Origin: Phoronis australis | Taxonomy: Eukaryota > Animalia > Phoronida | DNA: 64,000 bases | Reading direction: 5' to 3' | Assembly (NCBI GenBank): GCA_002633005.1 | Contig: NMRA01000810.1 | Coordinates: forward strand, 71,845 to 135,844 | Part shown: positions 1 to 41,596 of the stretch, piece after piece | Layout: every line of letters starts with the position of its first letter | Numbering within the stretch: position 1 is the stretch's first letter | Position numbers and translations under genes: made by a program | Notes under the pieces: generated by a model | The model's input: only the letters and a program-made list of their open reading frames with translations | The model's database searches: none | What the model was told of the DNA's origin: nothing

Positions 1-892
1 TCTGAATTAAATCACAAGTTTGAATTAAACAAGAAGTATGTTTTATGCTCCAGCCAGCACTGGAAAGCCTTGAATCTTCTGTTACTTCTAGCAATGATCG
101 TCGATTTAATTACCTGATGTCACTGGCTATCAATTCACTGAAGCTGTAACTTGGATGACTTTGTAAGTGCGACTCAACTGTAACTTTAACTCAAGTCAAC
201 TTCAAGTGACTGTCACTAACCCTTCCTTATAGTCTCTCACACTGTTATGGATTTTTCACCAATTCATGTTCATTCTAGAATTGTTCAGAAGGTTCCCAAT
301 CCTTTATTGACATTAGACTGTTCCAGGTTACGGATCTATATTAAACCCTGATATGTTGAAATCTGCTGACTGAGTATTTTGTTGTGAACAAATTACATCA
401 TCTCTGGCCTGACATCATAGGTCATCTCAATCAAATGATTTCTGCTAGTTAACAGATACAGCAACAAAATAAAACTTACACATGGGCGGCGCAGCACTGA
501 AAAAGTGGGGGTCTAAAGCCCCCTCGGCCCCGCTGTAGTGCACTGCTTATAGACCATGTGCAGCTTAGCACTGAAAAAGTGGAGGGCTATAGCCCCCAGC
601 CCCCTATGGTGCGCAACCCATTGTAGCAAGGAGTGTAATAATATAGTAAACTCCTTGCTTATAGTACTGAAACCAGTGTCTGTCTTCTCCTGAAAAAGGA
701 TTGTGATTTCTATTGAGTACCGGTTAATGACTTATTTATCATCTCATGATGAAGAGTAGAACACACCACTAGTTGCAATAATCTTGGGTCGATCACTGGA
801 AGTGCCCCATGTGCTGTTTCTAATGTGTTTTCATCACAACTGGTACACATTCATCTTTTGCACTAAGCCTTGGCAATACCGTTTTAGCTTAC

Positions 893-1094
893 CCCCATTT
901 GTGCCGTCCACCATAAAAACAGTTTCCTTGATTTCCAGAATTCCATCGACAGGTCCAGGGTCAGTACACGCGCTGCCATTAAAGTGTATTGTCCAACGAC
1001 CCCAACCAGGAAGGGTACCGAACACCATAAACGCACCGGCAAGAAATATGACGCGAACCGCAGTGTCGCCTGCTCGCTTCTCAAACTCGTGAGA
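893..1094 (-). CDS. Gene A exon 6: core of CTHRC1-like domain 2 (gene continues beyond window start)
   Basis: CTTATTCAG acceptor, GTAAGC donor; 202 nt, phase 0->1; SHEFEKRAGDTAVRVIF...GRWTIHFNGSACTDPGPVDG. Confidence 0.85.
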
Positions 1095-1421
1095 CTGAAT
1101 AAGACATGGAATATCATTAAAACATGTCAACCTAAGCATGACTGCATAAATCCATCGGCATCGTTACTACTTTTATCACATTTTTGTCACTCTCGTCAGT
1201 TGCTAGTACTGTAATTTCGATAATAGATGTCGCTATCGACATTAACCACTCTGTTAAAGTTCACAAATAGCCACAATTGCGGACAGTGTCAGCATATCTT
1301 AAAAATGGATTAGGCAAGGGAGAACTTGCTGAATCCTACATTCCGTGAACACCGACAAGATTGTTTAACTATTCAGATGCATAACATATGTGTCTCACTT
1401 TTAAACATTAAAGTGTCCTAC

Positions 1422-1507
1422 CCAAAGAGTTACATCTTTGCCGGCGTTGCCCCTCCAGGACCAAGTTTTTTGTTGAACATTGAATCTCGCATGTGAAGGA
1501 CATGTTC
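1422..1507 (-). CDS. Gene A exon 5: start of CTHRC1-like domain 2
   Basis: TTTCTTTTCAG acceptor, GTAGGA donor; 86 nt, phase 1->0; GTCPSHARFNVQQKTWSWRGNAGKDVTLW (NxxQxxW motif). Confidence 0.8.
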
Positions 1508-3184
1508 CTGAAAAGAAATGGATAAAATGGACTATGGAAGTATGCTTCAGGAAATAACAAAAAGTTTTGAACCGCCTTGTCTACGGCGGATATCAATACT
1601 GTATATAGTGATTGAAAATAGTAATTGCATATTACACGTGCAAGATATTCTGGCTTTGTTGATTATCGAGTCTCTTTCTAATTGTTCACCGAGATGGTGT
1701 TGAAGAGGCAGGAATAAAGAAGACAGAAGAGGACAAAATTAATGCTTGATCGATATTGATAAAACAACCTTCCGTTGTTGTAGCAAACTCATTGGGTATA
1801 TTAATTTTAATGTAGAGAAAATACAATCAAAGATCGTGACTTAGATTCCCGACAGGCAAATTCAACTTTGTCAAACTCCGCCACCAGCAAGTTGCCAACG
1901 TTATCGCCCTTTCCGTGGCGCCAGATTTCAAGTTTCCCTCTTTCGTCACCACTTTTGCACAGTTGTCGCCGCCAATTTTGCCCTCCCATTTGTTTGGCTG
2001 TTGCACGCCTGTATTTGGGGATCGTCAGATATGCAATTTCTCAAATAATAAACTCCATCAAAACTCACTGAAGCATCAATTTTTACAAAATTCGCTTGTG
2101 ATTGGCAAAAATCAGCTTTGAATGGGAAGTTTCGAGTCCGACAAGCACCATCCAGACAGGAACAGCATAGGAGAGAGAATATCCCTGTTACGGTAATTTA
2201 AACAAAAAGAACCACTTTTCAGTAACCCTGATCTAAATTAATATCTATTTACTTATTTACAAACATGATAACAAGTTACGCAAAACTTGGGACGAAGACA
2301 GGGTCGAACGTCCGCACCAACAGTCCAAAACTTGAAACTTGCGGCATCTTCAGTCTTCACTACCAAGGCAAGGCGTCCCCACTTGTTCCGTTGACTCCCC
2401 AAGTCCACCAAAATAATAGTCAAGTTCCATACACAAAACGCAGCTGTCCGCACCGAAGCAAAGTCTCACCACATGAACAAATAACGTTCAGTATTTCGAA
2501 AAGTAGAAAGAAAACATTAAGTCCAGCCTCAGTGTTCAGATAAAGCATGATACACGTCTGCTCACCATCAGCGACCAAATAGAACTCCGATAAAACTCAA
2601 AAGTGCCCCCTAGCGGGAATACCTAACATACAATTCCACAAGGGGGTTGGGGACATATCTAGAAATTTTCAGAATGCACCCGTCTTAACGCCACTTCTGG
2701 CTTATTTCAATTTAGGAGTGCATATCGCCCTTCGAAAGATTAGAGAAATCTCAGTGTATTATAGTCCACATTTCGTGTTCTCTAAAATTAGTACCCTTAC
2801 TGTACTTTTAGAAATTACAATGGGAACTTTGAGTGTATCAAGCTCTCCTGAGTCTCTTTGAAATGGACTTACATGTATATCCATAAGAACGAAACTGTTT
2901 TTAAATGGTACTGCTGAAATGTTTCAAAATCTGGGATTCGAGGACACTCAAGATTTAAATAAAACACTGCTAATTGAAAAATAAATTATTTTTAATCTCG
3001 ATTTATCCCTCTGTTTCGCTGTGTCTTGTTTTTATATCTTCCCGTAATTTGGCTGTCACCAGGAAAAAGTTTTGGATTTTGCACAGACACCTTCAAATCA
3101 TGAGAGGTAGGGATCTTTCCACATGTCTGATACAGAGGCAGTGAATTAAATAGCTCTGCAAATGGGCCAATCCTAACAGCTTAC

Positions 3185-3349
3185 CTTTCGTCTTCCTCAT
3201 GTCATTTTCTTCGAGTGTAATCGACAGTCCAATCTGGTCTTCTAATGGCCATCCAGTGCTGTGTTCTGGAGAATCACCTACTGAACATGGCTCGACGGCA
3301 AACTGCACTTCTGTTGTTCCCACCAAAATGTCGTCACAGATTCCATCGA
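3185..3349 (-). CDS. Gene A exon 4: end of CTHRC1-like domain 1
   Basis: CAG acceptor, GTAAG donor; 165 nt, phase 1->1; IDGICDDILVGTTEVQFAVEPC...HSTGW...ITLEE matches CTHRC1 EGxCxG..G.V.V.....C....TGW...IIIEE. Confidence 0.85.
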
Positions 3350-3589
3350 CTGTCGCAGAGAATGTTCATCGTTAGCACTTTCAATGAATTGTTTCATCAT
3401 ACCACACGAATTAGAGGAAAGGTTTCGGAAATATCTTGCACTTAATGTAATTTTTCACGCAAATGTCACGTCTCGTGCCAATTGACCTATCGCCAGGATT
3501 TTGACTGTCGGCTAAACTGACTAATCAGAACGCAGCATTTTTGACACACCTTCGTCTGCGTTTCCAATCTTCTATTTTATTCGACAAAT

Positions 3590-4230
3590 AACACGTTGTC
3601 GGATAGAGATAATTTTAGTCTATGGCTCAGCAAATTGTGTAATACGAATGGTGAAACGGTGTTGCTATGGCGTGTGTAATTCCGACAGTCGTTATGCAGC
3701 TCGAAAAGAATATCCCGTCATTTTTGGATATTCCATAAGACGAAAAATGATGTCGAAAGTTGTAAACGATGGATCCAACTGTTCCGACGGCCACACGAGC
3801 AGCTGAATTTGATTAATCTAAGGCTAAACAAAACTATATTTGTTCTAAGGTACGTACATTTCAGTTTGATGGCAATAGTGTAGGCCTATCTGAATTTGAC
3901 CCCTTAGTTTCAATCGTCTAGCCGCCTTTGTCTCAACACCCACTGCACCAATTACGGCTAATTCCGTGCAATAACTTGACTTTAAAGCACCCCTGGACCT
4001 ACCTGAGCTAGCTGTTTGCCTAGGGCAACATGAGTGTGCATGTGAGCTATGAATCTAAGTTTTTAAAGAAAGTATTTTGCTCGAAAGGTTAGAAAAGCAT
4101 AAACGGTGTACCGATTCAACCTACTTCTGGCTTTACACACGGAATCTTATGTAAATTTCATTTGGTGAAATTTAGCAGACGGCAGGATAAAAATATCCGT
4201 GAATCTTCATTGATTTCGTTCAAAATATAC
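3590..4230 (+). mobile_element. Degenerate THAP-domain DNA transposon fragment, copy 1
   Basis: From 3648 MVKRCCYGVCNSDSRY...RWIQL.RRPHEQLN...YICSK with frameshifts; homologous to 19330-19980. Confidence 0.65.
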
Positions 4231-6423
4231 TGCTCTTCGAAAAGCTTTGCCTATTGAACCCAAAGCAAGTGTCGGCATACTTGTACATTTTAGCCTATAT
4301 GAATGTTTAGCGTGACGTCATTTTGACTTCATGACGTTTTGAACCCAGTGTGACGGCATGTCTATTCATATTTTCGGGTCCAACTTGTGTCAACTACAGC
4401 CATAACACGTCATCACCAAACACCCGAATACTCAGTTATGTATACATTTAAGGATTGGTTTGTTAAAGACTGGAGTGCAAGAACTCGTTAGGCCTTTAAG
4501 TAAAGATTAATTTAACAGAAGTAGACGTGTCAGGGGTTTGAAGCGTGCACCGTTGCCGAGCCGGCTTAAACGTGAGCTGCGTTGTAGAAATGGAAGCACA
4601 ACGCGTCAAACTTGAACTTGTTGCAAGGTCAATGATTGTGCTACAATTTTCCGACTTATTCACCCTTTTTGTACGCTCATATATTTTTTGAAGAAATGCT
4701 GCAGTGCTAAAGCTTATGACATATTTTTCCGGTACAATGCAAGTCGTTATCGGGTCTATCCGTGCACCGTGGCACCACAGGACGGATCTGCATATCGGCA
4801 ATTGAGACAAAGTTTCATCAATTCAATTTCAAACACTTTTACTGTAGGTGATGGAAATTCACCATCAGCATTTAAACATGTCTCGATAAGACTTTCTAAA
4901 TTGAAAAACGCTCTCCTCTGTGGGTTATACTTGTCGAGCACAGGATTGGCAAGTTAATAAAAAAACTGATAGCTGAATTTGAACAATCTTCGGAGAGCGT
5001 GACACAATGTACATGTACATACCGGTATACATGTATATCGTTTGTTCGCAATAGAATTGTTTAGACCTCTGCAAGAAGTTGGATGATCAGCTTTTTCAAG
5101 AAAATTTTCTTTAACAGTGTTCTGGGGACTGTTTTGGGAAAATCACTCCTTGTAAAGTAAACAATATCTTGGAGAAAATATAATTTTTACACACAAAAGT
5201 TAATCCATATAGGACCACGAGCTGCTACCCACAAAAACACAATGCCAACAGCCTTAGTTTTAGTTCTTGTGATGAATATACATATTTGATGTCATTGCAA
5301 CCTACATGTAGCTTCATTGAATCAGTAAAGTTATGGCACACCTTGCACCAGGCCAACCAACTTATTTGTGTTAGTTGTCATGGCAACATTTTAAGGATTT
5401 TCAAAATAGCTCTTCAGGTTTTGACATACAAAAAATAAATTTGGGAACTCTATTGTACTAGATGCAGACAACCTTTATGTGGCTAAAACTATTTCAATTT
5501 TCCGGACTTGCTTTTTAGTGTATTAGTTATGGTACACTTGTAATAGTTGATGTTGTCTTTTCTTCAGCTTGTTCACATTCTTTGAAATATTGTTCGCCGG
5601 TGGTGTGCAGCTTATTGTATTACAAGTACTTTCCCATGTAATCGGTGCATTTTCAAGTATTCGGATATAGGTAGGACCTACTGTAAAATGCTTTGAGCAT
5701 GTGTGCATGCCTTCTGACATGAGTGTTTTCAAGTCTAGAAGTGCTAATCTTGGCCGTGAACAAATTAGCTCCCATATGTTTAATTAGAAAATTCAAGTCT
5801 CTTTGTATGGTTTTCATTCATCGTACATGTACATGTATATGATATGGCTCTCGTCCTGATTTTGAATAGTCACGATGACAACCTTGCATATTTCAGCTTC
5901 GCGATAGTTCAACGAGGGTCACTGTAACTATTTGGCCAGTGGTTGATCTTGCGATAGAAACAACAAAATTGTTGATAGTGGCATGCTAACTCTTGAGTTC
6001 ACCCTGCCAGTTTAAGTACAATGCAAGATCATTATATCTAAGCTTACATTTCAAGATACGAGAAGACGCTACTTGGTGTGAACATGCCATGTTGACTGAA
6101 AAGAGACGACGTGGCAATCTGAGCTGAGCAACCTTTGCTTCAAGTACTGGTTTAGGCCATGAATAAAGTTGGTTATAGTCTTAACACTAGTCATGTTGAG
6201 ATATGTGGGTCATGAAAAAACAACCGTTGGTATCAATAACAGCCACGGTTTCGTGTTTTTTAAGCTGCTCAAAGACACGTAAAGAAAATAAAGCAAAGTT
6301 TGAAAATACCTGTCTAAACACAAATATTAAATATACCATAACAATGTCAACAATTGTGTTTTGATTTGGGCCACTTTAACGCCAATTTGTAATAATTGTA
6401 GAAATAGGAAATGCAGCACTTAC

Positions 6424-6610
6424 TTCTAGAAGAGTGGTACCGATTCGTGGACGCGTAATTTGCCCACACTGCTTCAATTGGACCCGGATTCCTACACGGT
6501 TGCCCGTTGATGAGAAAGAACCAATAAATGCACGCGTTCCTCGAACTAAGAACGCCTCGAAATTGCACGTGCAGTGACGTGTGGTTTAGTTTCTTCTCAT
6601 ACTTTAAGTT
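6424..6610 (-). CDS. Gene A exon 3 (copy b)
   Basis: 187 nt with intact CAG/GTAAGT sites; NLKYEKKLNHTSLHVQFRGVLSSRNACIYWFFLINGQPCRNPGPIEA. Confidence 0.8.
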
Positions 6611-7705
6611 CTGCAAATATTAATAATAGTCGGTTTCACAGTTTTATTATTGTTAATATGATATTCACTTTCCGAAAAACAAATGCCACATGCATTGTAT
6701 TATCCCAGTCAGTGCTGCAGCTTGTCAAGAGGCATGTAAGCGTGCTTTCTACAATAGTAAAATAATTATCGACACGGTGGAGAACTCTTTGCAAGCGAAC
6801 AAAACGCGTTTAAAGATGCATGGAACACAAAAACTTGTAAAAATATCTTTGTAACAGATCGTGACGAATCTACTTCTTGGAGATGCTGGAGGGTTGTTAT
6901 CTCTGAATACTGCAAGAATCTCCTGAAAAATCGCCAGATTCACTTTTTTTGAAACACAGGCGTAACAGTTGATTTCTTTCATCCTAATACAGTTTTCTGC
7001 ATATTATATACGCGCGCATGCGCTTAAAGAAGTCGGACTCGCTGCTGCTTGAAATTGCCATTCTTTTGTTTACGTCCAATGGTTAAACGTGAAGGAGAGG
7101 GATGGAGAGGGAGAGAGATAGGGAGAGGGAGAGGTCAATCGTCACATTTTCCATATGAGGGATATGTGTCACGTCTATATCTTGCCATACCAAATAAGAC
7201 GTGCTTTGCCGTGTTAGAGAAAAATCAACAAAGTTACGAGCAGGTGACAGAACCAATCTTATGAAATTTAAAATTAAAGTAAAATGTTTTATCATCAACA
7301 GAAATTGAAAATCTTAACCAGCAAACTGTTACAATACCTGGAGACCAGTTTAACTTAAGTTTCAGTGGCGGAGAACTCTGAATAATGCCGTTCAGACTAT
7401 TTTTCTCGTCCTACACTGTACGCCCCTTTAAGGAAAGGTTTTACTTCGGACAGCGACTTCACAAAACTTCAGTTAAACTGTTATGCCTAGAAAACATTAG
7501 GTCGAACGAGGCGTTGTTGTTTAGCAATAGCATCGTGTAGATACTGCTGTTGCATTTTGAGCTTATGCTTTACATGTAGACGTACTGTGCTAGTACACTT
7601 ATTGCCGATGAACTACATTCGTTTGGTTTTGCTTATCACACCAAATCTTCCGCAAAGTAAACGTAGGATACGTGTATAGTGTAGTTATGTATACAAAATA
7701 CGAAC

Positions 7706-7800
7706 CATAAGAATCTCCGATCTCTTGGTTGAATAGAAACCAGGGTAATAAAAGTGTTGGACGTTGGTGGCGCCAGTGTCCGTACACCTCTCTGTGGTCT
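7706..7800 (-). CDS. Gene A exon 2 (copy b)
   Basis: 95 nt with intact CAG/GTTCGT sites; one substitution (I/M) versus copy a. Confidence 0.7.
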
Positions 7801-8177
7801 CTGAAAACAACAGTAAAAGGACATGATGTACTACTTGCATGATAAGGCCGCTAGGTGGTGACACAGGGGACACGCTATGCAAGGGCTAGAGGTTTTAAAT
7901 CTGCAGCCTGGCCATCGGACTTTCTTTTAAACATACGGCAGTGTACCTGTAATTGTTTTTCGTAATTGCCACACTATTTTTTAGTATTAATGAGAATTAA
8001 ATAATAGGGATGGAATAGGGGTGAAAACAAGTTTTAAACAAAAGCCAATGAAATAAATTTGTAATTTTTTTGAATGCGGAAAGTTTTGCATTCATTTACT
8101 TATTCATTTGCATGAGATACAGAAAATGCTATGAATGGGTATGAGATAAAACCTAAATCCTAATAAAATAATCTTAC

Positions 8178-8302
8178 CAGTGACTGTGCAGTTCGAAGTG
8201 TAGAAGTCCCAGTCCAGGTCGTCCACCAAATTCGGCGAGTCGAGACACGGAAAAAGTCGACACATATTGCTAACCCTGTTGACATTGAAAGTGAAACAAT
8301 CG
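8178..8302 (-). CDS. Duplicate of the 3' part of gene A exon 1 (PAN), cut off at a single N
   Basis: Near-identical to 12019-12143 (DCFTFNVNRVSNMCRLFPCLDS...); sequence stops at N 8303. Confidence 0.6.
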
Positions 8303-10289
8303 NATACAGGTTTCATGCAAGATGAGTAACATTTACTTTCTTATTTTATACAATTTTTCACGTTCCAAGCCACTTTAACAGAAGTAGACGTGTCAGGGGT
8401 TTAAAGCGTGCACCGTTGCCGAGCCGGTTTAAACGTGAGCTGCTTTCTAGAAATGCAAGCACAACGCGTCAAACTTGAACTTGTTGCAAGGTCAATGATT
8501 GTACTACAATTTTCCGACTTTTTTCACCCTTTTTGTACGCTCATATAATGTTTGAAGATATGCTGTTAAAGCTTATGACATATTTTTCCGGTACAATGCA
8601 AGTCGTTATCGGGTCTATCCCAAGATGCACCGTGGCACCACAGGACGGATCTGCATATCGGCAATTGAGACAAAGTTTCATAAAATCGATTTCAAGCACT
8701 TTTACAGTAGGTGATGGAAATTCACCATCAGCATTTAAACATGTCTCGATAAGGCTTTCTAAATTGAAAAACGCTCTACTCTGTGGAATATACTTGTCAA
8801 GCACAGGACTGACAAGTTAATAAAAAACCTGATAGCTGAATTTGAACAATCTTCGGAGAGCGTGACACAGTGTACATGTACATACCGGTATATATCATTT
8901 GTTCGCAATTAGAATTGTTTAGGCCTCTGCAAGAAGTTGGATGATCAGCTTTTTCAAGAAACTTTTCTTTAACAATGTTCTGGGGACTGTTTTGGGAAAA
9001 TCACACCTTGTAAAGTAAACAATATCTTGGAGAAAATATAATTTTTATACACAAAAGTTAATCCAAATAGAACCACGAGCTGCTACCCACAAAAACACAC
9101 ACACTGCCAACAGCCTTAGTTTTAGTTCTTGTGATGAATATGCATATTCGATGTCATTGCAACCTAGCTTCATTGAATTAGTAAAGTTATGGCACACCTT
9201 GCACCAGGCCAACCAACTTATTTGTGTTAGTTGTCATGGCAAGATTTTAAGGATTTTCAAAATAGCTCTTCAGGTTTTGACATACACATTAAATAAATTT
9301 GGGAACTCTAGATGCAGACAACCTTTATGTTGCTAAAACTATTTAAAATTTCCGGACTTGCTTTTTAGTGTATTAGTTATGGTACACTTGTAATAGTTCA
9401 TGTTGTCTTTTCTTCAGGTTGTTCACTTTCTTTGAAATATTGTTCGCCGGTCGTGTGCAGCTTATTATATTACAAGTACAGTACTTCCCCATGTAATCGG
9501 TTCATTTTCAAGTGTTCGGTTATAGGTAGGACCTACTGTAAAATGCGTTGAGCATGTGTGCATGCCTTCTGACATGACTGTTTTCAAGTCTAGAAGTGCT
9601 AATCTTGGCCGTGAACAGATTAGCTCCCATATTTTTAATTAGAAAATTCAAGTCTCTTGGTAAGGTTTTCATTCATCGTACATGTACGTACAGTTATGAT
9701 ATGGCTCTCGACCTGATTTTGAATAGTAACGATGACAACCTTGCATATTTCAGCTTCGCGATAGTTCAACGAGGGTCACTGTAACTATTTGGCTAGTGAT
9801 TGATCTTGCGAGAAAAACAACAAAGTTGTTGATAGTGGCATGCTAACTCTTGAGTTCACCCTGCCAGTTTTAGTAAAATGCAAGATCCTTATATCTAAGC
9901 TTACATTTCAAGATACGAGAGGACGCTACTTGGTGTGAACATGCCATGTTGACTGAAAAGAGACGACGTGGCAATCTGAGCTGAGCAAACTTTGCTTCAC
10001 GTACTGGCTTAGGCCATGAATAAAGTTGGTTATAGTCTTTTTAGAGTTAACACTAGTCATGTTTAGATATGTGGTTCATGAAAAAACAACCGTCGGTATT
10101 AATAACAGCCAAGGTTTCGTGTTTTTTAAGCTGCTCAAAGACACGTAAAGAAAATTAAGCAAAATTTGAAAATACCTGTCTAAACACAAATATTAAATAT
10201 ACCATAACATTGTCAATAATTGTGTTTTGATTAGGGACACTTTAACGCCAATTTGTAATAATTGTAGAAACAGGAAATGCAGCACTTAC

Positions 10290-10476
10290 TTCTAGAAGAG
10301 TGGTACCGTTTCGTGGTCGCGTAATTTGCCCACACTGCTTCTATTGGACCCGGATTCCTACAAGGTTGCCCGTTGATGAGAAAGGACCAACGAGTGCACG
10401 CGTCCCTCGAACTAAGAACGCCTCGAAATTGCACGTGCAGTGACGTGTGGTTTAGTTTCTTCTCGTACGTTAACTT
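10290..10476 (-). CDS. Gene A exon 3 (copy a): core of CTHRC1 C-terminal-like domain 1
   Basis: TTTGCAG acceptor, GTAAGT donor; 187 nt, phase 0->1; KLTYEKKLNHTSLHVQFRG...CTRWSFLINGQPCRNPGPIEA matches the CTHRC1 motif FxK...LRVxFxG...CxRWxFxFNGxECxxPxPIEA. Confidence 0.85.
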
Positions 10477-11545
10477 CTGCAAATATTAATAATAGTCGGT
10501 TACACAAATATGCTATTCACTTTCCGAAAAACAAATGCCACATCCATTGTATTATCCCAGTCAGTGCTGCAGCTTGTCAAGAGGCATGTAAACGTGCTTT
10601 CTACAATAGTAAACTAATTATCGAAACGGCTGAGAACTCTTTGCAAGCGAACAAAACGCGTTTAAAGATGCATGGAACACAAAAACTTGTAAAAAATATC
10701 TTTGTAACAGATCGTGACGAATCTACTTCTTGGAGATGCTGGAGGGTTGTTAACTCTGAATACTGCAAGAATCTCCTGAAAAATCGCCAGAATCACTTTT
10801 TTTAAACACAGGCGTAACAGTTGATTTCTTTCATAATAATACAGTTTTCTGCATAATATTATATACGCGCGCATGCGCTTAAAGAAGTCGGACTCGCTGC
10901 TGCTTGAAACTGCCATTCTTTTGTTTACGTCCAATGGTTAAACGTGAAGGAGAGGGATGGAGAGGGAGAGAGATAGGGAGAGGGAGAGGTCAATCGTCAC
11001 ATTTTCCATATGAGGGATATGTGTCACGTCTACAGTATATCTTGCCATACCAAATAAGACGTGCTTTGCCGTGTTAGAGAAAAATCGAAAAGTTACGAGC
11101 AGGTGAAATTTAAAATTAAAGTAAAGTGTTTTATAATCAACAGAAATTGAAAATCTTAACCAGCAAACTGTTACAATACCTGGAGACCAGTTTAACTTAA
11201 GTTTCAGTGGCGGAGAACTCTGAATAATGCCGTTCAGACTATTTTTCTCGTCCTACACTGTACGCCCCTTTAAGGAAAGGTTTTAGTTCGGACAGCGACT
11301 TCACAAAACTTCAGTTAAACGGTTATGCCTAGAAAACATTAGGTCGAACGAGGCGTTCTTGTTTAGCAATAGCATCGTGTAGATACTGCTGTTGCATTTT
11401 GAGCTTATGCTTTACATGTAGACGTATTGTGCTAGTACACTTATTGCCGATGAACTATTCGTTTGGTTTTGCTTATCACACAAAATCTTCCAGAAAGTAA
11501 ACGTAGGATACGTGTATACTGTAGTAATGTATGCAAAATACGAAC

Positions 11546-11640
11546 TATAAGAATCTCCGATCTCTTGGTTGAATAGAAACCAGGGTAATAAAAGTGTTGG
11601 ACGTTGGTGGCGCCAGTGTCCGTACACCTCTCTGTGGTCT
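11546..11640 (-). CDS. Gene A exon 2 (copy a): start of CTHRC1 C-terminal-like domain 1
   Basis: TTCTTTTCAG acceptor, GTTCGT donor; 95 nt, phase 1->0; ETTERCTDTGATNVQHFYYPGFYSTKRSEILI joins in frame to exons 1 and 3. Confidence 0.75.
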
Positions 11641-12018
11641 CTGAAAAGAACATTAAAAGGACATGATGTACTACTTGCATGATAAGGCCGCTAGGTGGTG
11701 ACACAGGGGACACGCTATGCAAGGGCTAGAGGTTTTAAATCTGCAGCCTGGCCATCGGACTTTCTTTTAAACATACGACAGTGTACCTGTAATTGTTTTT
11801 CGTAATTGCCACACTATTTTTTTAGTATTAATGAGAATTAAATAATAGGGATGGAATAGGGGCGAAAACAAGTTTTAAACAAAAGCCAATGAAATAAATT
11901 TGTAATTTTTTTGAATGCGGAAAGTTTTGCATTCATTTACTTATTCATTTGCATGAGATACAGAAAATGCTATGAATGGGTATGAGATAAAACCTAATTC
12001 CTAATAAAATAATCTTAC

Positions 12019-12316
12019 CAGTGACTGTGCAGTTCGAAGTGTAGAAGTCCCAGTCCAGGTCGTCCACCAAATTCGGCGAGTCGAGACACGGAAAATGTCG
12101 ACACATATTGCTAACCCTGTTGACATTGAAAGTGAAACAATCGTCGTCGAGGAGACACGCATCTCCACACGTCAGCCGAGAAGCAGCGATGACATTTTTG
12201 GCAGTTTCATCGATGATCCTCTTTGACTTGACACGATTGTATGTTCGCTGTCTGTCAAAGGAACTGACTTGGAAAACGCAAGCTGCAAAAAGACATAAAC
12301 GTAAAAAGTTACACAT
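12019..12316 (-). CDS. Gene A exon 1: signal peptide + PAN/apple domain
   Basis: ATG at 12316; hydrophobic leader MCNFLRLCLFAACVFQVSS; PAN-like cysteine pattern CGDAC...CFTFNVNRVSNMC...WDFY; ends at G|GTAAGA donor; 298 nt, phase 1. Confidence 0.85.
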
Positions 12317-15149
12317 TATTGTGTCAGGCTAATGGGAAGCCTTTTGCAGGAATGATACACCTACCTATTTGGTTTCCTATATATATAGAGAACACGAGTT
12401 GCATTGATTTTTGGAAAACACGCGAGAAGAGAGTTGAAGACTTTCTAAGGATACAACGCAAATTGCGTATTGAAGGTTCTGCCACTCATGTAATGTCACA
12501 AACAAGGAAACTAAAGCGAACCTTCAATAACGCAATCACTTCAGTTCATTTTTACTCGAAAAAAGAACTTCTCCGTGATAGTAAGTAGCAGCATATGTTA
12601 ATAAAACCAACGACAGATTTAATGCCGCTTTACATACATGTACATCAGCGTTTATTGAAACACCGTCATCAGAAGAAAAAATACAGTGGTCACCTTGCTA
12701 CGCACAACAACAAGTACATGTAGTGGAACACAGAAACCGTCATTTACAGGGGTGTTACAATACACTGGACTAGCAATGGCAACCTTTGGCGTCCCAGTTG
12801 CCTATTGACATTGAGTTTACACCAATTAATGGTTAGAGCCTCACGAATTTTAAGGTTCTTGTTGTTTCTGCTTGTTCTGTTATAGCAAAGTCATAGAAAG
12901 AGCATTGCTCATGACAATGACTGGAGCTCTGCAGATGAATATTAATGTGTGAACTTGTCTGAATTTAGATGTTCCCTGGTCCAGGTTTTCTAATGGCGAA
13001 CATCCATGTTGCACTGGTGTTCGATTTCAAGCACGTAAAGCGTGAACACAATTTAACAGGAAATCAATGCAAAAACAATCATTGGGATGGTAATACAGAC
13101 CCCCTAGTAACTGAAGATAACTAGACGTCACTGGTGTTTTGGTATATACCTATTCAGTCATTGGTTTCCTCTGATAGTATGCAGTAAACAAACCTCTTGT
13201 GTCGCAAATTCTTGGTCTGGTCCTTTGCAATCTTTCATGGTCCAACTTCGTGATTCATGGAGCTTTGCTTTTTTATTTAACACTCCAGCCCAGGTAAACA
13301 CGATTTGTTCCTGATCCTCCGCCCTCGGTTCCTTTCACACTGCTCCACTTTGTTTTCTTAAGTATAATTCATAATTTTGACTCTTCCTGTTTCGCATGAT
13401 TATTCTTATTCGAACTTATTTTTTCAATTCTCATCATTAATTTATTTATATAAAGGGGATCTTCTTGTTAGCTATCATAAGTCTTTAGTAGCCCCCCTCT
13501 TTATTTAAGTTGTAATTTTTAAGCGGCGTTTTACCTGTACATATATTTGTTAACGTAATTAAAAGTGTTACCCTCTATCCCCCTCTCTCTGTCGTCAACA
13601 TCATATTCCTGTCGGTCATCACATAGATGCGTATATGTATATACATAGCATTCTCTTCCGGCTGTTCAACGGCCTTCAACGGTCCTCTATGCCTAGTTCA
13701 TTAAAGAACGTCAAAGTTGTCAGTGCATACCAAAAATTCCCTCGGCTTTATCTCAAGCAAAGTGTCGAAATTAACGTTGAAGAATTTAAAACTAGGAACT
13801 ATTTCGCTGATCTGTCATCTCATATTACATTGTTGCAAATTTCATTAGCGATTTTCATCAAGCTTTGCCTTCAGGATTTTGTGACCGGTCCAGACCTTTT
13901 GCCATGTAGCAAAGAAATGACTTTTTTGAAATGATTCTCTTTATGAGTATGCAAGAACTGTGCATCTCGTTAGTATTCATCATGGAACTAGGGGAGTAGT
14001 ACTTTGTGATCAGAACGACCAGCAATTTGGTAAATTTGATTTTTCATTTTTGCCCACTCACTTATGGGATATTCTGTAGACACTCCTCTCAGATTGACTG
14101 CAATTCTTGCTCGTTTGCATTTTAGGGTTGTGTGTTTTGATCCTTGTTAACAAGTTGGTTTTGTATGTGTGGGGTACGAACTTTCTCATTGAGTACATGT
14201 ATGGACTTCTGATTAGAAAGGCCTAACATAATGACAACCCTAGTCTAATTTGCAACGTTGGGAATTTAGCAAACAATTTTCTTATGCTTGTTGTATTTCG
14301 TTGATTTTTTATTTTAATTTCTGCTACACATATTTGCTGGTTCTGTTAAATGTTGGCTTAAGATACAATTCCATTGTCAAAATCAATCAGTCGCCGAACA
14401 CCTGAGAATATACAACTTGTTTCACGACATGACATATTACGATTTCTCGAATAGCATCAATAACTATTTCATTCAGTTTGATTTTCGCTGCTGTTTTTCG
14501 TTGCAATTTTGTTTTCGTTGTTGTTGTTTTTCGATAAACATTATATCCGAGAAAAGTCTTTCTTTGCATGTAATTACTTAACGCACGCACTTTTATTCAA
14601 TACCGTATTCCATCTTTCTGTCATTGACATTGTGCGTGGCCAAATCTTTATTATACTATACATGTACTCTTGGCATCGTGAATGCTCTTTAACTTCATAA
14701 GATTCCATCCACTAGAAATGTATGAGAAAGCAATGGAAAGTTTTTGTTTTCACTGTTGAGTCAGATGTGTAAGAGATTGAAACAACTGACTGAACCACTG
14801 AGGCACCATTACAGCACTTCTATGTAGGCGAGAAAAGAGCGACAGAAAATTGACACGTCCTTTTCAAAATCAGACCTATTGCATAGCATTTTTGATTTGC
14901 CATATATATAGTTAACACTGACTTCTTTAAAAAAAACGAGAAAACACCTGTTGACTGGGCCAGATTACTTTGTAATAAATTGTATGGCGAAAAACAAGTT
15001 ACAAGGTTACAGTGCAAGCATTCGGTAAACGTTATTCCATTAAACACAAACGAGCGAAACCGAGCATCATTAAATGAATTGCTCGTATCTTTTTGTACTA
15101 TAATTAGTTCCTTGTTGACAGTTTCAAGGAAGTAATAGAAAAGCCGAGA

Positions 15150-15235
15150 CTAATTCTTCACTGCTGAATAGAAAACAGGGTAATTAAGGTGCTGGGTGTT
15201 AGTGGCACCAGTGTCTGTGCAACTCTTTCTGGTTC
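15150..15235 (-). pseudogene. Orphan diverged paralogue of gene A exon 2
   Basis: TTTTCAG acceptor then GTRKSCTDTGATNTQHLNYPVFYSAVKN*, similar to ETTERCTDTGATNVQHFYYPGFYS; stops early and no partner exons were found. Confidence 0.65.
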
Positions 15236-18200
15236 CTGAAAACACTGAATGACAACAGCTCATTACGCAGACTGGGTCCTCTCTGGTCCAGTTCAAGCAC
15301 TGGTCATTCATCAGAAAGGCGAGAATGGGTTCGGATCTCCAGCATGGCTTGTGCATTTTTTTCAACCTCACCTTTCAAGCACTCTGTAAAGGGGAACACA
15401 ACAATTTTAGTTAAATTACAATGTTTCCGGAGTGGCGCATGTACATGTATCATAATTACGTAGAATTCGGGACAGTCTAATTAAGTTGGGTAGTTATCGA
15501 CAATAATAAAAAAGCAAAATGACATTAACAACGGTCGCTTTTCCATTATTGAAACAGACTAGCAAAAGCAAACATCATTAAATGACTTACTTCGATCCTT
15601 TCAAGTGCTATAATTATTTCCTTGTTAGTAATCATTATCAAGGAAGTAATAGAGTATTAGGTTATGATATATTTTTCTAACATGCAGTTTCGAAATCGTT
15701 GCAACATATACACTGTACATCTGGACTCATTTTGTTTCAAGGATAAAATTTTCCCACTTAGTCTGTTCTGCCAATATATTCGAAACATCTTGAAAATTTG
15801 TCGCCCGAGAGATATTTATATTGGCTTTCTAACGTCTGAGAATTCCATTTACTATTGTTTTGTCAGTGTTGTATTAAATTTAGTATAAGTCTGCAAAGCG
15901 CATACATCATGAGCAACTTTCGACGATGTTTTGATTTCATGTCACTGAAAACAAGATTTTTCTGAGAGTGGTCCAAGCACCATTGAAATAGATACATGTA
16001 CATGTAGCATAATCTAGGATTACTTCAATTTCGTGGTCAACCACTTGACCATTTTTGAAAACAACCTTCTTGTTTCCGCTAGAGTGAGCACGAAATCTCT
16101 TCAATCATTTGACACTTACATGTATAGACATTATAGACAGTAGCCCAAGAATTTTAAGTTTTTGCTCGAGGTGCCTCAATTTACAAGGCAGACTAGTACA
16201 GTTGCGCAAGGCTCAAACGACTACAGGGGCCCGGTGTCGGTCTATGTCGTACAGTAAAAAGCCAAATGATGAGTTCAGTACTAGTGTCAATGTAAAGAAA
16301 GGCCACCTTAGCTAAAGAATGTCACACTAACACTGTTTGTTTGTTGCAGTGTGCCACATTTGCCTCGACTCATCATTTTACGATGACGCTTCCAACATTA
16401 CGTTTAAAGTTGGTTTGGATGTTTTGAAAGAAGTACGGTTTCGTAGAGAGTTAAAACTGAATAAAATTGCGCTTGATTTTAATAATAAATTTGTGACGTG
16501 GAACTTTTTCGGGCTAGAGAATGGACGATGTGGACATTCCAAAGTTCTGAACACTAGGTTTGTGTTGCGATTGTGTTTGAGACTAATATCAACGACCAGA
16601 ATCCATTTTAGTTCAGATAAAAGCGATATGAGGCCAACATTGACCCAGACATAACTTCATTGCGCACTCACTACACGTGCGTAGAAAGATCCAAGTTTCC
16701 AAATGCCGACTTTTAGAAGAAAATATTTGCAATGTTCACAATGAAGATCTGCTAAGAAACACGCAGAATATACATGTATGTCACCATTAATTCAAATCAT
16801 GAGTTTCAGCTTGACACTTAAAAGTAATTAGGGTGATTTGTGTCGTTTAAAACGAATCAATGATATCACCAAAGTCTGATTGTCGTTTCCTTGCTTAACT
16901 TGCATTTGGAAAAGCTCTTCATTAATTAATACTGTTCAAACATTCAACAGTGTTGATCAATAACGAGTGTGCACTGCTATTGGCGAAAAGTTACACGTAG
17001 GCCTATCGATAAAAAAAATCCTTTTACTTGCCGGTACACACTTAACGTTTAATGCTACTACGGATATGTGATTGGTGTAACAGGTACAGTACCCCAATGA
17101 ATTTCTCTGGCCGGGGCCCCTTGACGGTTAAGTCGACCCTGAACATGAATAGTCTTGAGCTTGTACATTGTTGACGGAAACTGATGCATCTTAGCACAAA
17201 AATAAGCAAATTCTTTACAACAGGTGTTACTTGATTATACTATTCAATAAAATACACGGTAGGTCTAAACTGTGAGTAGAATAGTATGTACATGTACAAT
17301 GTATACGGATGTAAACAACATTCACACGGAAATAGGTCACGGCGGAGTTCTCACTGGTGGCACTGCATACTCTTCTCCTTATATGGAAATGTACTTCACC
17401 TTTCCACTGAAACAGTTCAAAAAGCTCAATTATGACTCAATTCTCGAGAAAATATACAAAGTTCTGACCAACGTCAAAGAGTTCATTCAGATACATGTAG
17501 CCATAGGTTTTGGATTGCAACAGAAAGAGTTAGTAAGTAGTACTCTGGCCTGAAAAGTGCAAGTTGAGAAACTTTTCACGGGAACCTTTTTCCCGTCACT
17601 GGTGTCTACATTTTTTAGACTTGAATAACCAGAGTTCTACGCAAAACTCATTCAAAGCTAATGTAAATGGATAGCACAGAAAACATATTTGTCTTGAAAT
17701 TAATTGGCCGTCGTCGCAACAGCTACTCGAAGAGTGAAAGATTTGTTAATAGTATTCAGAATCGCTTGATATTTTGCTCAGACACACATCGGTCACTGTC
17801 TCCATTTGTCTTGATGGGTGTATTAGTAGTCATTTTAGCGACTTGCAAACCCTTTTCCAAATTCAGAACCATTAACATATAAACACTCGTGACGGTTTTA
17901 GGTGTTACATAGGGATAGTCAAGCAGGAACAACATTTGAAACTTTTGTGGGTAGGCTGTAAAATATTAATTTTGCTTTTTTTGTTTAGAACCAATGGTAG
18001 GGCCGTAAGAAGAGGGGGCCCGGGGGGCGTGTCCCTCCAAAAACTTGCAGGCGTCAGGGTTAAACCATAGCAACCGACATAGGCTTGGGACCGGGGACAG
18101 TCTATAAAAAAGACTACGATTACGGATACATTATACAACTCAGTATCAGTGCATGGTTTACCCTTTTAGGGCCCTGGCCAAGAAACTGTTGTTAGGGTCT

Positions 18201-24426: not shown

Positions 24427-26137
24427 TAGTCCACGAAAGCACCAACCATGAGCGGCAAGTTGGGGGTCAGCCGATTTTCACCAAATTTGGCACATATGTA
24501 GTCCTATGGGATCTATAAACAGCGGTAAAATATTTCCTCAAAATAGTTTGTTTTTCTAAAGTTATAGGTTCAAACACATTTTACGGTTTCGCAGCCATGT
24601 TTTCACGGTATAAAAACTGTCCAGTTTTAACTGTTCATATTTTTCCTTGAATGAAAGCTATTGATTTATTATTCACTTGGCATTGTTTAGTGGTGCCTAT
24701 AGATTGTTACACAGATGTCTTGAAACACGATTCCGATTTACCNNNNNNNNNNNNNNNNNNNNNNNNNNNNNNNNNNNNNNNNNNNNNNNNNNNNNNNNNN
24801 NNNNNNNNNNNNNNNNNNNNNNNNNNNNNNNNNNNNNNNNNNNNNNNNNNNNNNNNNNNNNNNNNNNNNNNNNNNNNNNNNNNNNNNNNNNNNNNNNNNN
24901 NNNNNNNNNNNNNNNNNNNNNNNNNNNNNNNNNNNNNNNNNNNNNNNNNNNNNNNNNNNNNNNNNNNNNNNNNNNNNNNNNNNNNNNNNNNNNNNNNNNN
25001 NNNNNNNNNNNNNNNNNNNNNNNNNNNNNNNNNNNNNNNNNNNNNNNNNNNNNNNNNNNNNNNNNNNNNNNNNNNNNNNNNNNNNNNNNNNNNNNNNNNN
25101 NNNNNNNNNNNNNNNNNNNNNNNNNNNNNNNNNNNNNNNNNNNNNNNNNNNNNNNNNNNNNNNNNNNNNNNNNNNNNNNNNNNNNNNNNNNNNNNNNNNN
25201 NNNNNNNNNNNNNNNNNNNNNNNNNNNNNNNNNNTTGTGCATTTCCCAAGAGTTTCCAAAGTTGTTTTTCTCCGCAATTTGTAGAAATACCACATTCGAT
25301 GCGACTGGCAGTGCCAGATAAACAGATAAATTCGCAAACCCGCACTTTAGGTCAGCCATCATTCAACTAACGCATTGTAAGCTTTAGTTTGGTATTCAGA
25401 CGAGTTGGATGAACAAATTTAGAATTATTTCATATTTTAGTGGGAAATGCTAGTGTCCTTAAAATTAATTAGAAACATTTAAGCAAACCAATTCCTTTAA
25501 TTGTTGTATTATACCACGGCCTATTAATGCGTAAAAACGGCGCACAACCAGTGACTGGTTTAACATGACAAATACACATACGCGGTCTGAAAATAGTGAA
25601 ATTCAGACACCTATTACCACGCTTGCCTGAAGGGCTGACAAAGTTTTTATTGTATTAATTTCAAGGGCATGGAGTCTTCTACATGTCTATGTTATTATTT
25701 TTAGTTTTCTCGCGGGGGCAGCTTCGCTATTAGGGCACAACTTACTGCTGGTTTTTCACAAGAAGGACATGTACCTCCACGGAAACAGTCCCAGTGTTAC
25801 CATGGTAACCGATATTTCAGTGTCGGTGACGTTTTTACTGACATTGGTCACGAACCTATCATGTGATATCAAAATTGTTCAGAAACGATTCTGTTTAAAG
25901 CAGAAACTGGAGTAGTAAATTTGGTAAAAAATGACTCATCCCACATCAAGAAATTACCTCATTTTGCCCCCCAGAACACTTCCCTTGTATCTCCTAAGCC
26001 ACCAAACTTTGTGGTGTCATACTTCACCCAATTTCTCTCATCCCTAATGTGATTTATCAGACTAAACATGGATCTGAATGGCTGACCCCCCACCTTGCCG
26101 CTTGTTGGCTGTACAGTGGTCGGTGGATCCGTGGACT
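24427..26137. mobile_element. TIR element spanning an assembly gap
   Basis: AGCGGCAAGxTGGGGGTCAGCC at ~24451 is inverted at ~26080-26102; outer AGTCCACG is also inverted. Confidence 0.55.
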
Positions 26138-26550
26138 GATACTTAATCTCCCTCCCACTTTTAATAAGTGCGAGCATGCACTCACAGGCAGTTGCTTTAA
26201 GTCGCTTGAGGTCAAAGATCACATTTCCCTTATACGGGAAATGTGCTACAACTAAGGCTTGCCTTAACAAATAAGGGGAAGTGCTTTGCCTTGCGGGAGA
26301 CAACTCAACGAAGTGACGAACAGTTGACAGGTCGTTTTCAGCAATTTAAAGTAAAATAAAATGCTTTGCTGTCAACTGAACTGAAAATTCGTTACGAACA
26401 AACCCTAAAAATACCTGATGAGCAGGTTGAATTCTGTTTCCGTGGTAGAGAACAGCTTTCAGTATCGCAATTTAGTTTGCTTATCTCGTTCCAGCTCTCT
26501 TTAATCGTCTTTTGTGGAACTGAGTTCACGTGTTTTGAAATCAATGTTCC

Positions 26551-27083
26551 AGGGAGGGAATCAACAATTGATCGGACTTCAAAACCCTTTGCCCGGACTT
26601 CAAAACAACTGGATGGACTGTACATGTAAAATCAAATGGTGGGTGTTCCAAATTTGGTGGTCAGAAATCAAAACGAGTTGGCCAGTACCGGCCTCGTACC
26701 AGATGGCCACAAAACAGTGGTTGGCCGTACCTAAAACGGGTTGGCCAGTGTTTAGACACAATGGCCGAACAAATCGCCAATTTGGAACAAAATAAACAAA
26801 CTGAGGTACCAAAATCAGCATCAGATGTCACTTGAGCGGAAACCTTCAAGGCGAGTCGCTGAGGAGCCGGTCCGGACGTCGTGTTTGATTACACGGACGA
26901 CTCAGTGGTTGTAGTACCGGCGTTTTGGATCCAGCCAACTAGATTTTGGGGGTGATGCCGTTGCGTTTTGAAGTGCAGACAACAGGTTTGATCACCGGTC
27001 GTTTGGTTCTGCAGTCCAGCCGACTGGTTTTAAATTCCTGGAAGTGGTTTTGAAGTCCGACTTACCAATTGCTGATAACCCCT
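26551..27083. mobile_element. MITE-like foldback element
   Basis: Imperfect inverted ends caattg..tcggacttcaaaacc / ggttttgaagtccga..caattg. Confidence 0.6.
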
Positions 27084-27518
27084 TGTTTTCGCTCAAATGC
27101 TGCTCGGGTGGAGAGGAGACATATTAACTGGTAGCGAAAATGGCTTCTTAGTTGTGAACATCCTTTCTGTCGGGCTTCAACACAAGCGTTTTCAGTGATG
27201 ACGTATTGTTAACATACACCTGTAGTAAGTAATGTCACGTGATGAGACCCATGACTTAAAAGTTACATGGACATCTATGAGAAGCCAAGTGACAATTTCA
27301 CATGTTCACAGTTGAATCACGTGTGTAAGCGATCGAATCAACTGACTGATCCCGTCACCATAACTGTACAGTATACTGTCCACAACAACTGTACACTTGT
27401 ACACACAACGATGACGAAACAGAATATCTCTTTCCATTCACTTTAAGATTTGACTTATGAAGCTAAGCTTGATGACGTTAATGTAATGCACAATGCCAGT
27501 GCAACTGCAGCACTGAAA

Positions 27519-27664
27519 TTACTCGTTTGCGCACACTTCTTGGGCAACAATGCGACACCCGTTACCATAACACGTGTATGCATCATTTTCCTTTATTCCC
27601 TCACAAGATTCGACGTACATCTGGATTGTAACCTCCCCTGCCGGTAACTTGCAGAAACCATCGA
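27519..27664 (-). CDS. Gene B last coding exon: end of terminal CTHRC1-like domain and stop
   Basis: TTTCAG acceptor, phase 1; IDGFCKLPAGEVTIQMYVESCEGIKENDAYTCYGNGCRIVAQEVCANE*. Confidence 0.8.
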
Positions 27665-28407
27665 CTGAAACAAATGAAGCAAATTGCAAAATCCATCAAG
27701 TGCGCTTTCATACTGAATCATTTTCGGTGGTCAAAGCACAGAAATCAGACCTTTCGCACACCGATGGTTGAAACTGCTCTCCAAACAATTTAGCGAATTC
27801 CATTCCGAATATAGTGACACTGGAACAACGCGGATCTTCTAGAGCAACCCCCCCCCCCTCCCGCACACTATCCATGGGGAAGTGAAGGCATCAAGATTTT
27901 TCCTATGGAACTACGACCAAATTACCAATATANCCCTCCCGCACACTTTCCATGGGGAAGTGAAGGCATCAAGATTTTTCCTATGGAACTACGACCAAAT
28001 TACCAATATATACACACACGGAATTAAAATTATAAAGAAAAGTGACCGTCACTGATGTTACCAGTGGCGGATTTAGACGGAGGCCAAGGTGGCCATGGCC
28101 TCCTTAAGATTTTCCCATACTCCATTCGGCAGTTCAGGAGTGCGAATGCCTGACGGGCAAAATCCTGGCTAATACTGTGTCCTGGCCCCCTTAACTCAAA
28201 ATCCTCAATCCGACCCTGATTAGCGACAATAATACCAAATCGAAAAGGCATTAACTTGATAAATTCGCAATTTTCAGCTTGGCCACCCCCCTGAAGTGAT
28301 CAGTGATAGTTTAAGATGGTTGCGATATATGTTTTGCTTTCTTCTAACACGGATTTGTCATCAAAACTGTACAAGTTTTGTCCATATGACAATAGGCCAA
28401 TACTCAC

Positions 28408-28609
28408 TGATCATCATATGAACACTATCGTCGACTGCCCGTTGTTTGTACATGTACTTGTAAATGCCACCGACTATTGGTCCCGGATCCCGACATCGTT
28501 CACCGTTCACCAGGAATCCCCACGTGGAACACCATCCGCTTTGACGCAGGTTACCTTGATAGTAAACGCGGAGGTAACTGGTTGATGACTGTTTATTGAA
28601 CGTTGCTTC
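28408..28609 (-). CDS. Gene B exon: core of terminal CTHRC1-like domain
   Basis: TTGCAG/GTGAGT sites; 202 nt, phase 0->1; EATFNKQSSTSYLRVYYQGNLRQSGWCSTWGFLVNGERCRDPGPIVG. Confidence 0.85.
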
Positions 28610-29956: not shown

Positions 29957-30054
29957 ATATGGTAAAGTTCCGTTATCTGTAGGGTCACCCTTCTCCCAAT
30001 ACCATTACTGAATGTTGAAATCAGTGACGCTGCAGCTGTGTTTCTCGAGAAGGT
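29957..30054 (-). pseudogene. Gene B exon: start of terminal CTHRC1-like domain, with in-frame TAA
   Basis: TTTCAG/GTAAGA sites; 98 nt, phase 1->0; DLLEKHSCSVTDFNIQ*WYWEKGDPTDNGTLPY; stop at 30005-30007 where gene A exon 5 has Q (FNVQQ). Confidence 0.7.
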
Positions 30055-34295: not shown

Positions 34296-34445
34296 CCACT
34301 GCGTAAGGAACTCCCATTCTTACTTCCTCGACAATAAATCTGCTTAAAGTGTGCTCTGTTGTAACACCTTCTAAGGAGCCGCTCGTTTTCACGTGCAGTG
34401 AGACGGTTAGTTTACCGGAAGGTAGACCTCTGCAGATGCCGTCGA
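34296..34445 (-). CDS. Gene B exon: end of a CTHRC1-like domain
   Basis: TTTTATTCTTTTAG acceptor, GTATGT donor; 150 nt, phase 1->1; xDGICRGLPSGKLTVSLHV...SRFIVEEV. Confidence 0.8.
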
Positions 34446-41103: not shown

Positions 41104-41117
41104 TTAATCGCCGATTT

Positions 41118-41596
41118 TCACAAGTCTGAATTAAACAAGAAGTATGTTTTATGCTCCAGCCAGCGCTGGAAAGCCTTGACTCTTCTGTTACTTCTAGCAA
41201 TGATCGTCGATTTAATTGCCTGATGTCACTGGCTATCAATTCACTGAAGTTGTAACTTGGATGACTTTGTAAGTGCGACTCAACTGTAACTTTAACTCAA
41301 GTCAATTTCAAGTGACTGTCACTAACCCTTCCTTATAGTCTCTCACGCTGTTATGGATTTTTTTCACCAATTCATGCTCATTCTAGAATTGTTCAGAAGG
41401 TTCCCAATCGTTTATTGGCTTCAGACTGTTCCAGGTTGCGGTTCTATATTAAACCCTGATATGTTGAAATCTGCTGACTGAGTATTTTGTTGTGAACAAA
41501 TTACATCATCTCCGGCCTGACATCATAGGTAATGTCAATCATTTGATTGCTTTTAGCAAACAAATACAGCAACGAAAGTAAAACTTATAAATGGGA
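41118..41596 (+). repeat. Second copy of window positions ~12-486 (gene A intron after exon 6)
   Basis: Direct, high-identity match (aagtatgttttatgctccagccagc...catcatagg); ends at N 41597. Confidence 0.9.

Follow-up and report, generated by a model that had tools for sequence, protein, structure and literature searches.

A Phoronis australis gene that probably encodes a secreted PAN protein with three CTHRC1 domains and a putative single-chain trimeric head

The gene and its probable second half

The DNA analyzed here, called the window below, is a stretch of 64,000 nucleotides from Phoronis australis (assembly GCA_002633005.1, contig NMRA01000810.1, positions 71,845 to 135,844). Its reverse strand carries a gene for a protein in which a PAN/apple module precedes tandem CTHRC1_C domains (Pfam PF25815), the C-terminal domain of CTHRC1. 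An initial annotation, made from the letters alone, had proposed six GT-AG exons in one open frame, encoding a signal peptide, a PAN domain, one complete and one partial CTHRC1-like domain and no collagen repeat. This exon model was borne out: AG is present at all five acceptors and GT at all six donors, the phases are compatible and the spliced exons form a stop-free frame of 344 codons. The exons, each scanned singly against Pfam, are:

12019..12316, reverse strand: exon 1, with the ATG, a hydrophobic leader (likely signal peptide) and a PAN/apple-like module with C50, C54, C60 and C72
11546..11640, reverse strand: exon 2 (phase 1 to 0), linker and first part of CTHRC1_C domain 1
10290..10476, reverse strand: exon 3 (phase 0 to 1), central part of domain 1, PF25815 E-value (E) 2.5e-7
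3185..3349, reverse strand: exon 4 (phase 1 to 1), last part of domain 1 and linker, CTHRC1_C E 0.0023, below the cut-off alone
1422..1507, reverse strand: exon 5, start of domain 2, fitting family domain 2 best (14.1 bits versus 1.5 and 3.6)
893..1094, reverse strand: exon 6, middle of domain 2, PF25815 E 9.6e-7

Exon 1 matches Pfam PAN_1 at E 8.7e-4 and 19.5 bits, slightly below the 21.4 cut-off that the same profile exceeds in four relatives of the window protein. All 7 rows of the alignment have its four core cysteines. The structure model of this exon is modest (predicted local distance difference test, pLDDT, 61); in a Foldseek search PAN-bearing proteins fill nearly all of its top rows, none at E<=0.001, and the closest structures are the PAN domains of plasminogen, HGF and SML-2. 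With its four-cysteine core and its PAN fold, the module can be classed as PAN/apple, as had been proposed. The signal peptide was judged by hydropathy alone: the leader is hydrophobic, with a best 9-residue Kyte-Doolittle mean of 2.89, and the protein is likely secreted.

The domain assignments downstream of the PAN module held as well. PF25815 lies above the cut-off for exons 3 and 6, and also for exon 9 described below, while exons 2 and 5 have no Pfam match. The six exons encode one full and one partial CTHRC1_C domain, which align with each other at E 1e-8. We found no Gly-X-Y run of at least three triplets in the 344-codon model, as the initial annotation had stated, and no run of at least five in any six-frame segment of the window. 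The Pfam C1q domain matched none of the window exons and none of 30 relatives. Two cysteines that never vary in the other family members are both missing from domain 2; if the two form a pair, as we infer, their joint loss suggests selection.

Beyond the proposed model, four more exons were detected between 34445 and 27520. Those at 34445, 28609 and 27664 were located by profiles from the window, and the one near 30000 by a family-derived profile with a weak match (E 0.09):

34296..34445, reverse strand: probable exon 7, end of a CTHRC1_C domain with an EEVRMG motif that corresponds to the linker between family domains 2 and 3, family profile E 3e-8
29957..30054, reverse strand: probable exon 8, first part of domain 3, interrupted by an in-frame TAA (30007-30005, codon 411)
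28408..28609, reverse strand: probable exon 9, middle of domain 3, PF25815 E 5.4e-8
27520..27664, reverse strand: probable exon 10, end of domain 3 and stop codon, PF25815 E 1.5e-5

Exon 7 alone has no Pfam match. The four exons extend the frame of exon 6 with AG/GT sites and unbroken phases up to a stop after 541 codons, and the 1-0-1 phase pattern is identical across all three domains. When the ten-exon chain, with X at the internal stop, was compared with the relative P0001, residues 105-538 aligned at E 2e-46 and 30% identity. Exons 2, 5, 6, 8 and 10 (5 of 9) and whole domains 2 and 3 (2 of 3) fit their expected family position best. An earlier donor within exon 7 was ruled out, as the family linker EE[VT]RLG spans the site.

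In the assembly these exons lie upstream of exon 1. We place the block 25235-41596, which carries them, downstream of exon 6 because window positions 12-486, in intron 6, match a second copy at the end of a contig:

41118..41595: intron 6 duplicate, 94% identical to window 12-486, at the extreme end of the contig carrying exons 7-9, before the N at 41597

Exons 7-10 are therefore probably the 3' half of the gene that begins with exons 1-6, misplaced in the assembly. Profile searches of 41598-64000 found no PAN exon and no further CTHRC1 exon. The third domain thus lies on the displaced block and carries the stop; an allele with this stop early in domain 3 may yield a two-domain or a non-functional product.

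The same 94% identity is shared by a second duplicate that also went beyond the initial annotation:

4511..8302: tandem copy of 3.8 kb in intron 3, 94% identical to 8374-12143, meeting the original at a single N (8303)
8301-8178, 7800-7706 and 6610-6424, inside this block: second copies of the exon 1 tail, exon 2 and exon 3

The block 4511-8302 is likely a second haplotype retained in the assembly. The two copies of exons 1-3 differ by 10 amino-acid-changing and 3 silent codon differences. We rejected the tandem copy as a true part of the protein, since in-frame splicing would insert half a domain within domain 1. The window contains eight N gaps; the flanks of those at 8303, 27933, 41597 and 62247-62359 are duplicated or overlap other contigs at 94-100% identity, the gaps at 27933 and 62247 being themselves flanked by duplicates. 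This pattern suggests that the assembly was made from short reads of heterozygous DNA and still contains overlaps between haplotypes, and gene counts from such an assembly may be inflated.

Several other features were noted in the window:

15150-15234, reverse strand: some 3 kb upstream of exon 1, a degenerate exon 2 copy that has an AG acceptor of its own and contains a stop; it may be left over from an earlier local duplication
37860-38190 and 34880-35130: arrays of a tandemly repeated unit of about 31 bases; the array ends 34881-34912 and 38163-38194 are related in inverted orientation and perhaps mark the two ends of a non-autonomous transposon
54290-56250, reverse strand: apparently intronless gene for a RING finger and NHL-repeat (TRIM-NHL-like) protein, with Pfam zf-C3HC4 at E 5e-10 and NHL at E 3e-13; the N gap 55156-55949 splits it

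Collagen-less relatives and the predicted head

A profile of four window exons was searched against 1.84 billion representative proteins and gave 365 matches, the best 150 of which were used. The taxonomic range obtained is a lower bound, the word-seeded searches being weak (0 of 2 candidates for exon 3, and 2 matches each for P0001 and alignment A2). Among 30 relatives scanned with Pfam, four combine PAN_1 above the cut-off with tandem CTHRC1_C, with no collagen match. The initial annotation had proposed a search for the same architecture in other genomes, and it was indeed found, in RefSeq proteins of Lingula anatina and in P0001. The main relatives are:

P0001: PAN_1 and three CTHRC1_C domains, a single open reading frame of 611 amino acids on a 2,632-base contig, which is consistent with an assembled mRNA
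P0004 and P0005: PAN_1 and three CTHRC1_C domains, Lingula anatina RefSeq, uncharacterized
P0009: PAN and two CTHRC1_C domains, Lingula anatina RefSeq, uncharacterized
P0008 and P0020: Lingula anatina RefSeq, completing with the three preceding RefSeq entries a set labeled uncharacterized or CTHRC1
P0036: Bugula, two domains

The Lingula anatina accessions are XP_013395411.1/XP_013395410.1, XP_013399537.1, XP_013419939.1, XP_013412331.1 and XP_013388928.1, and they include several divergent paralogues. The nearest named relatives of the window protein are lophophorates. A quick tree groups the three window domains with Lingula-type proteins and Bugula P0036 in a clade of 21 rows (Shimodaira-Hasegawa-like approximate likelihood ratio test, SH-aLRT, 96, with long branches), and the branches of the window domains measure 1.3-1.7 compared to a median of 0.66. 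The Lingula proteins and P0001 share with the window gene a PAN module followed, where complete, by two or three CTHRC1_C domains, common inter-domain linkers and 27-32% identity. In contrast to the window gene, P0001, P0004 and P0009 have an extra cysteine-rich stretch between PAN and domain 1, and the stop in domain 3 belongs to the window copy and not to the Lingula-type relatives.

Judged by sequence, the window gene appears to belong to this family, with PAN followed by tandem CTHRC1_C domains and shared linkers. The family form has three domains, not two. The multiplication of the domain and the absence of collagen had thus been rightly noted in the initial annotation, while its count of two was too low. 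A family of PAN and triplet CTHRC1_C proteins is real and lies in public databases without a name.

Other combinations were seen among the matches. In P0003 (Oscarella) and P0083, collagen comes before four CTHRC1_C domains arranged as one plus three, and P0003 also contains a fibronectin type II insert; such a form is a possible intermediate between the canonical and the triplet one. In P0024 CTHRC1_C is fused to RING and TRAF zinc fingers, and in P0012 to folate-receptor repeats; these fusions may be genuine or may be joins of gene models.

The three domains of P0001 were modeled with AlphaFold2 from a 9-row alignment. The model has a predicted template modeling score (pTM) of 0.69, with 158 of 611 residues at pLDDT <50 and low confidence in the N-terminal quarter, and it places the three all-beta domains as one body. 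In a Foldseek search its five best matches (E 3e-8 to 3e-6) were trimers, single-chain or fused, from C1q, adiponectin, Cbln1 and APRIL/BAFF. With VIA-align, 335 residues superpose on the single-chain trimer of the C1q head 5hzf at Z 24.6 and a root-mean-square deviation of 3.2 A; the other single-chain trimers follow at Z 24.2 (4dou), 23.7 (5kca) and 21.4 (4zch), and the next row drops to 7.2. In the model, the P0001 domains would qualify as members of the C1q/TNF superfamily, being jelly-rolls packed as a three-fold head. When they were submitted as separate chains, complex prediction without alignment scored 0.21, 0.35 and 0.22 against a mark of 0.34 and yielded no call. Taken singly, the domains have among their fold neighbors two TNF-like lectins, PLTL and Bc2L-C (Z 6.6-7.2). 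The family profile found no C1q chain at E<=1 among PDB sequences, and in that search no solved structure matched the CTHRC1 head domain by sequence.

Domain counts point in the same direction as the model. There are 33 multi-domain proteins among 156; 4 with collagen and 12 starting inside a domain were set aside, leaving 17 collagen-less matches with a lead of at least 50 residues. Fourteen of these 17 have 3, 9 or 15 CTHRC1_C domains (12 of 15 after merging of members of the same cluster), while collagen is present in 10 of 14 single-domain matches with a hydrophobic lead. Where 9, 15 or 19 domains are present, those that lie three positions apart reach about double the score (172-195 versus 85-90 bits); where there are 15 or 19, a longer linker also follows every third domain. 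The large proteins P0006, P0007, P0156, P0011 and P0017 carry 3 to 19 CTHRC1_C-like domains in strict triplets, and the leaders of P0006, P0011 and P0017 give a bacterial impression.

Because the P0001 model superposes on trimers and most of the domain counts are multiples of three, triplication likely replaces collagen as the trimerizing device. PAN as a functional replacement for collagen was therefore rejected: the module does occupy collagen's position, as had been proposed, but collagen's job was likely taken over by the triplication.

Weighing the readings

On balance we favor the reading that the window gene encodes a likely secreted protein with PAN and likely three CTHRC1 heads, which would form a single-chain trimeric head of the C1q/TNF type for multivalent recognition of glycans or microbes. 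In the mechanism that we propose, a three-exon block bounded by phase-1 introns would have been repeated, a duplication suggested by the shared 1-0-1 phases; three different domains in one chain would then close a trimeric head without collagen, and PAN would act as a separate binding module ahead of it. A recognition function, be it of glycans or microbes, is put forward tentatively and by analogy, because of the lectin-type fold neighbors, the bivalve proteins with three C1q domains and the signs of fast evolution.

RNA was assessed from three raw-read runs (X1, X2 and X3) and one contig set under the same species label. Reads over 1-16000 fall almost wholly on repeats. At position 28510 in exon 9, near-identical reads (0-1 other differences) number 7 in X1, 12 in X2 and 0 in X3. 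A joint of seven reads in X2 ends at 30054, the predicted acceptor of exon 8, and starts from 33927, with 7 letters between; we read it as splicing at the donor that follows 33920. These reads on exon 9 and this joint show that part of the 3' block is transcribed. None of the joints listed for 26500-42300 connects exons 7-8, 8-9 or 9-10. In the repeat-rich part of intron 7, a candidate extra exon with a strong donor was noted (33920-34008, reverse strand), from which the seven X2 reads appear to be spliced to exon 8.

Several observations weigh against the favored reading. The exon 6-to-1 junctions proposed for checking by RNA-seq were not confirmed: among the joints listed, none falls at the five junctions of exons 1-6. 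The sole exon 8 joint among those listed comes from 33927, a repeat-rich spot with variant letters, and not from exon 7. The mean depth of the exon 1 bin is about 0.06, compared to the 7 (X1) and 12 (X2) reads on exon 9, a difference that fits 3' bias and equally fits separate transcripts. Exon 8 has its in-frame stop; exons 3, 4, 7 and 9 and whole domain 1 do not best fit their expected family position. As to the head, the trimer model is that of a 30%-identical relative built on nine rows, not of the window protein itself, its identity to C1q/TNF structures is 7-9%, and single-domain Z values near 7 lie in the range that the tool calls common. Three of the 17 counted proteins have two domains, and the 12 omitted matches that start inside a domain have counts of 8, 19, 3, 5, 3, 3, 2, 3, 3, 2, 2 and 2. 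Finally, a shared fold shows no function.

Exons 1-6 and 7-10 could stem from two gene copies, the first continuing past the left edge of the window and the second being what is left of the 3' part of a tandem paralogue. The assembly order, with exons 7-10 upstream of exon 1, speaks for this, as do the reads on exon 9 with almost none on exon 1, the repeat-rich origin of the exon 8 joint and the tandem Cthrc1 duplicates reported from cnidarians in PMC7058181. However, the 475 shared bases stop at the contig end and differ by 6%, as in the other N-joined duplicate, no second 5' half was found at 41598-64000, and other gaps in the window have duplicated flanks too; we consider two copies unlikely, though with appreciable weight. 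If there were two, neither the architecture nor the single-chain head would be affected, and the stop codon would not be this gene's. The locus might also be a decaying copy of a real family with no working protein: the in-frame stop in exon 8, the near-neutral 10:3 ratio between the copies, the near absence of reads on exons 1-6 in the three runs and the long branches of the window domains point that way. Yet exons 1-7, 9 and 10 have kept open frames and intact splice sites although the sequence has diverged by 30%, the putatively paired cysteine loss in domain 2 suggests selection and the two-domain Lingula form P0009 ends at a similar point, and decay is rather unlikely in our estimate.

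The two remaining alternatives concern the function and the packing of the domains. A CTHRC1-like role may have been kept, with the protein as a secreted modulator of growth-factor signaling or of matrix deposition (including shell or cuticle matrix) and PAN docking on a receptor or a glycosaminoglycan, as in HGF. A link of vertebrate CTHRC1 to TGF-beta/BMP and Wnt/planar cell polarity is described in PMC7058181, and the homology to CTHRC1 is in keeping with such a role; HGF and plasminogen N-domains are among the nearest structures of the PAN model, and the trimer geometry is common to TNF-family ligands. The long branches, the divergent Lingula paralogues and the 10:3 changes look more like a fast-evolving recognition family, and we doubt that the CTHRC1-like role was retained. 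The three domains might also be beads on a string that trimerize between chains into a fiber or network, as in mucus or matrix. The trimer packing is predicted only, and the two-domain forms P0009 and P0036, which exist, would be unable to close a head alone; but the pTM of the P0001 model together with its superposition on single-chain trimers, and the period-three pattern in the long repeat proteins, make such beads improbable.

Known systems and significance

CTHRC1 is a subject of research on fibrosis, arthritis and cancer. Leclere et al. (2020, PMC7058181) define Cthrc1 by collagen plus the C-terminal domain, describe trimerization of three chains via the collagen helix and propose a C1q-like C-terminal domain from ab initio modeling. 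Compared with the CTHRC1 family, the window gene is alike in the sequence of its C-terminal domain, in its hydrophobic leader and in the C1q-like fold proposal, but it has no collagen, PAN stands in front, and a single chain carries three diverged domains, where CTHRC1 has three chains with one domain each. The window protein is not a CTHRC1 by definition, because it lacks the collagen repeat, and it is not a C1q-domain protein by sequence.

The architecture had been presented as an unrecognized one, and this holds in part. Collagen-less CTHRC1-C proteins of Lingula and Phoronis are mentioned in a footnote to Table S3 of Leclere et al. (2020), and this state was already known. In the searchable part of that paper's supplement, which uses other gene ids, 'PAN' occurs only as the primate genus, 'apple' is absent and the five Lingula accessions do not appear. 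Full-text literature searches, whose scope ends before subscription papers (e.g., Gerdol 2018 on Lingula immunity), returned no description of PAN with tandem CTHRC1_C, and the PAN and triplet form is apparently undescribed.

A parallel is found in bivalves. The oyster has 21 smultiC1q genes, mostly with three domains (PMC6835236), and bivalve proteins with three C1q domains bind lipopolysaccharide and peptidoglycan (PMC5519582, PMC10672478). SmultiC1q proteins such as HcC1qDC5/6 and CfC1qDC-2 are collagen-less like the proteins described here and have mostly three tandem domains; they are secreted, as the present proteins likely are, and are reported to bind microbial surface molecules. Unlike the present proteins, they use the C1q sequence family and not CTHRC1_C, and no PAN is mentioned for them in the passages concerned. 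SmultiC1q and triplet CTHRC1_C are parallel solutions and not members of one family. The predicted three-domain geometry also resembles that of engineered single-chain trimers of the C1q head (5hzf, 5hkj), adiponectin (4dou), Cbln1 (5kca) and APRIL-BAFF-BAFF (4zch), with Z 21-25 and deviations of 3.2-3.8 A at 7-9% identity. Those are laboratory fusions, whereas the window gene is natural.

If the predicted geometry is right, natural single-chain triplets would lend independent support to the CTHRC1 domain as a C1q/TNF-type trimer. The triplet proteins would be simpler targets for crystallization and ligand screening, and they would offer a collagen-free route to the first structure of a CTHRC1 domain. 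Collagen-driven trimerization would have been replaced by a triplication internal to the gene, in parallel to bivalve smultiC1q. In its widest form, to which we give about even weight, our reading is that lophophorates possess an undescribed, diversifying family of secreted recognition proteins that arose by exon-block triplication of a collagen-dependent CTHRC1, with a single-chain heterotrimeric C1q/TNF-like head, three different binding faces and a PAN module. The same rule of three (3, 9 or 15 domains) would hold in collagen-less CTHRC1_C proteins of partly microbial-looking sources, and the CTHRC1 domain would be an obligate trimer.

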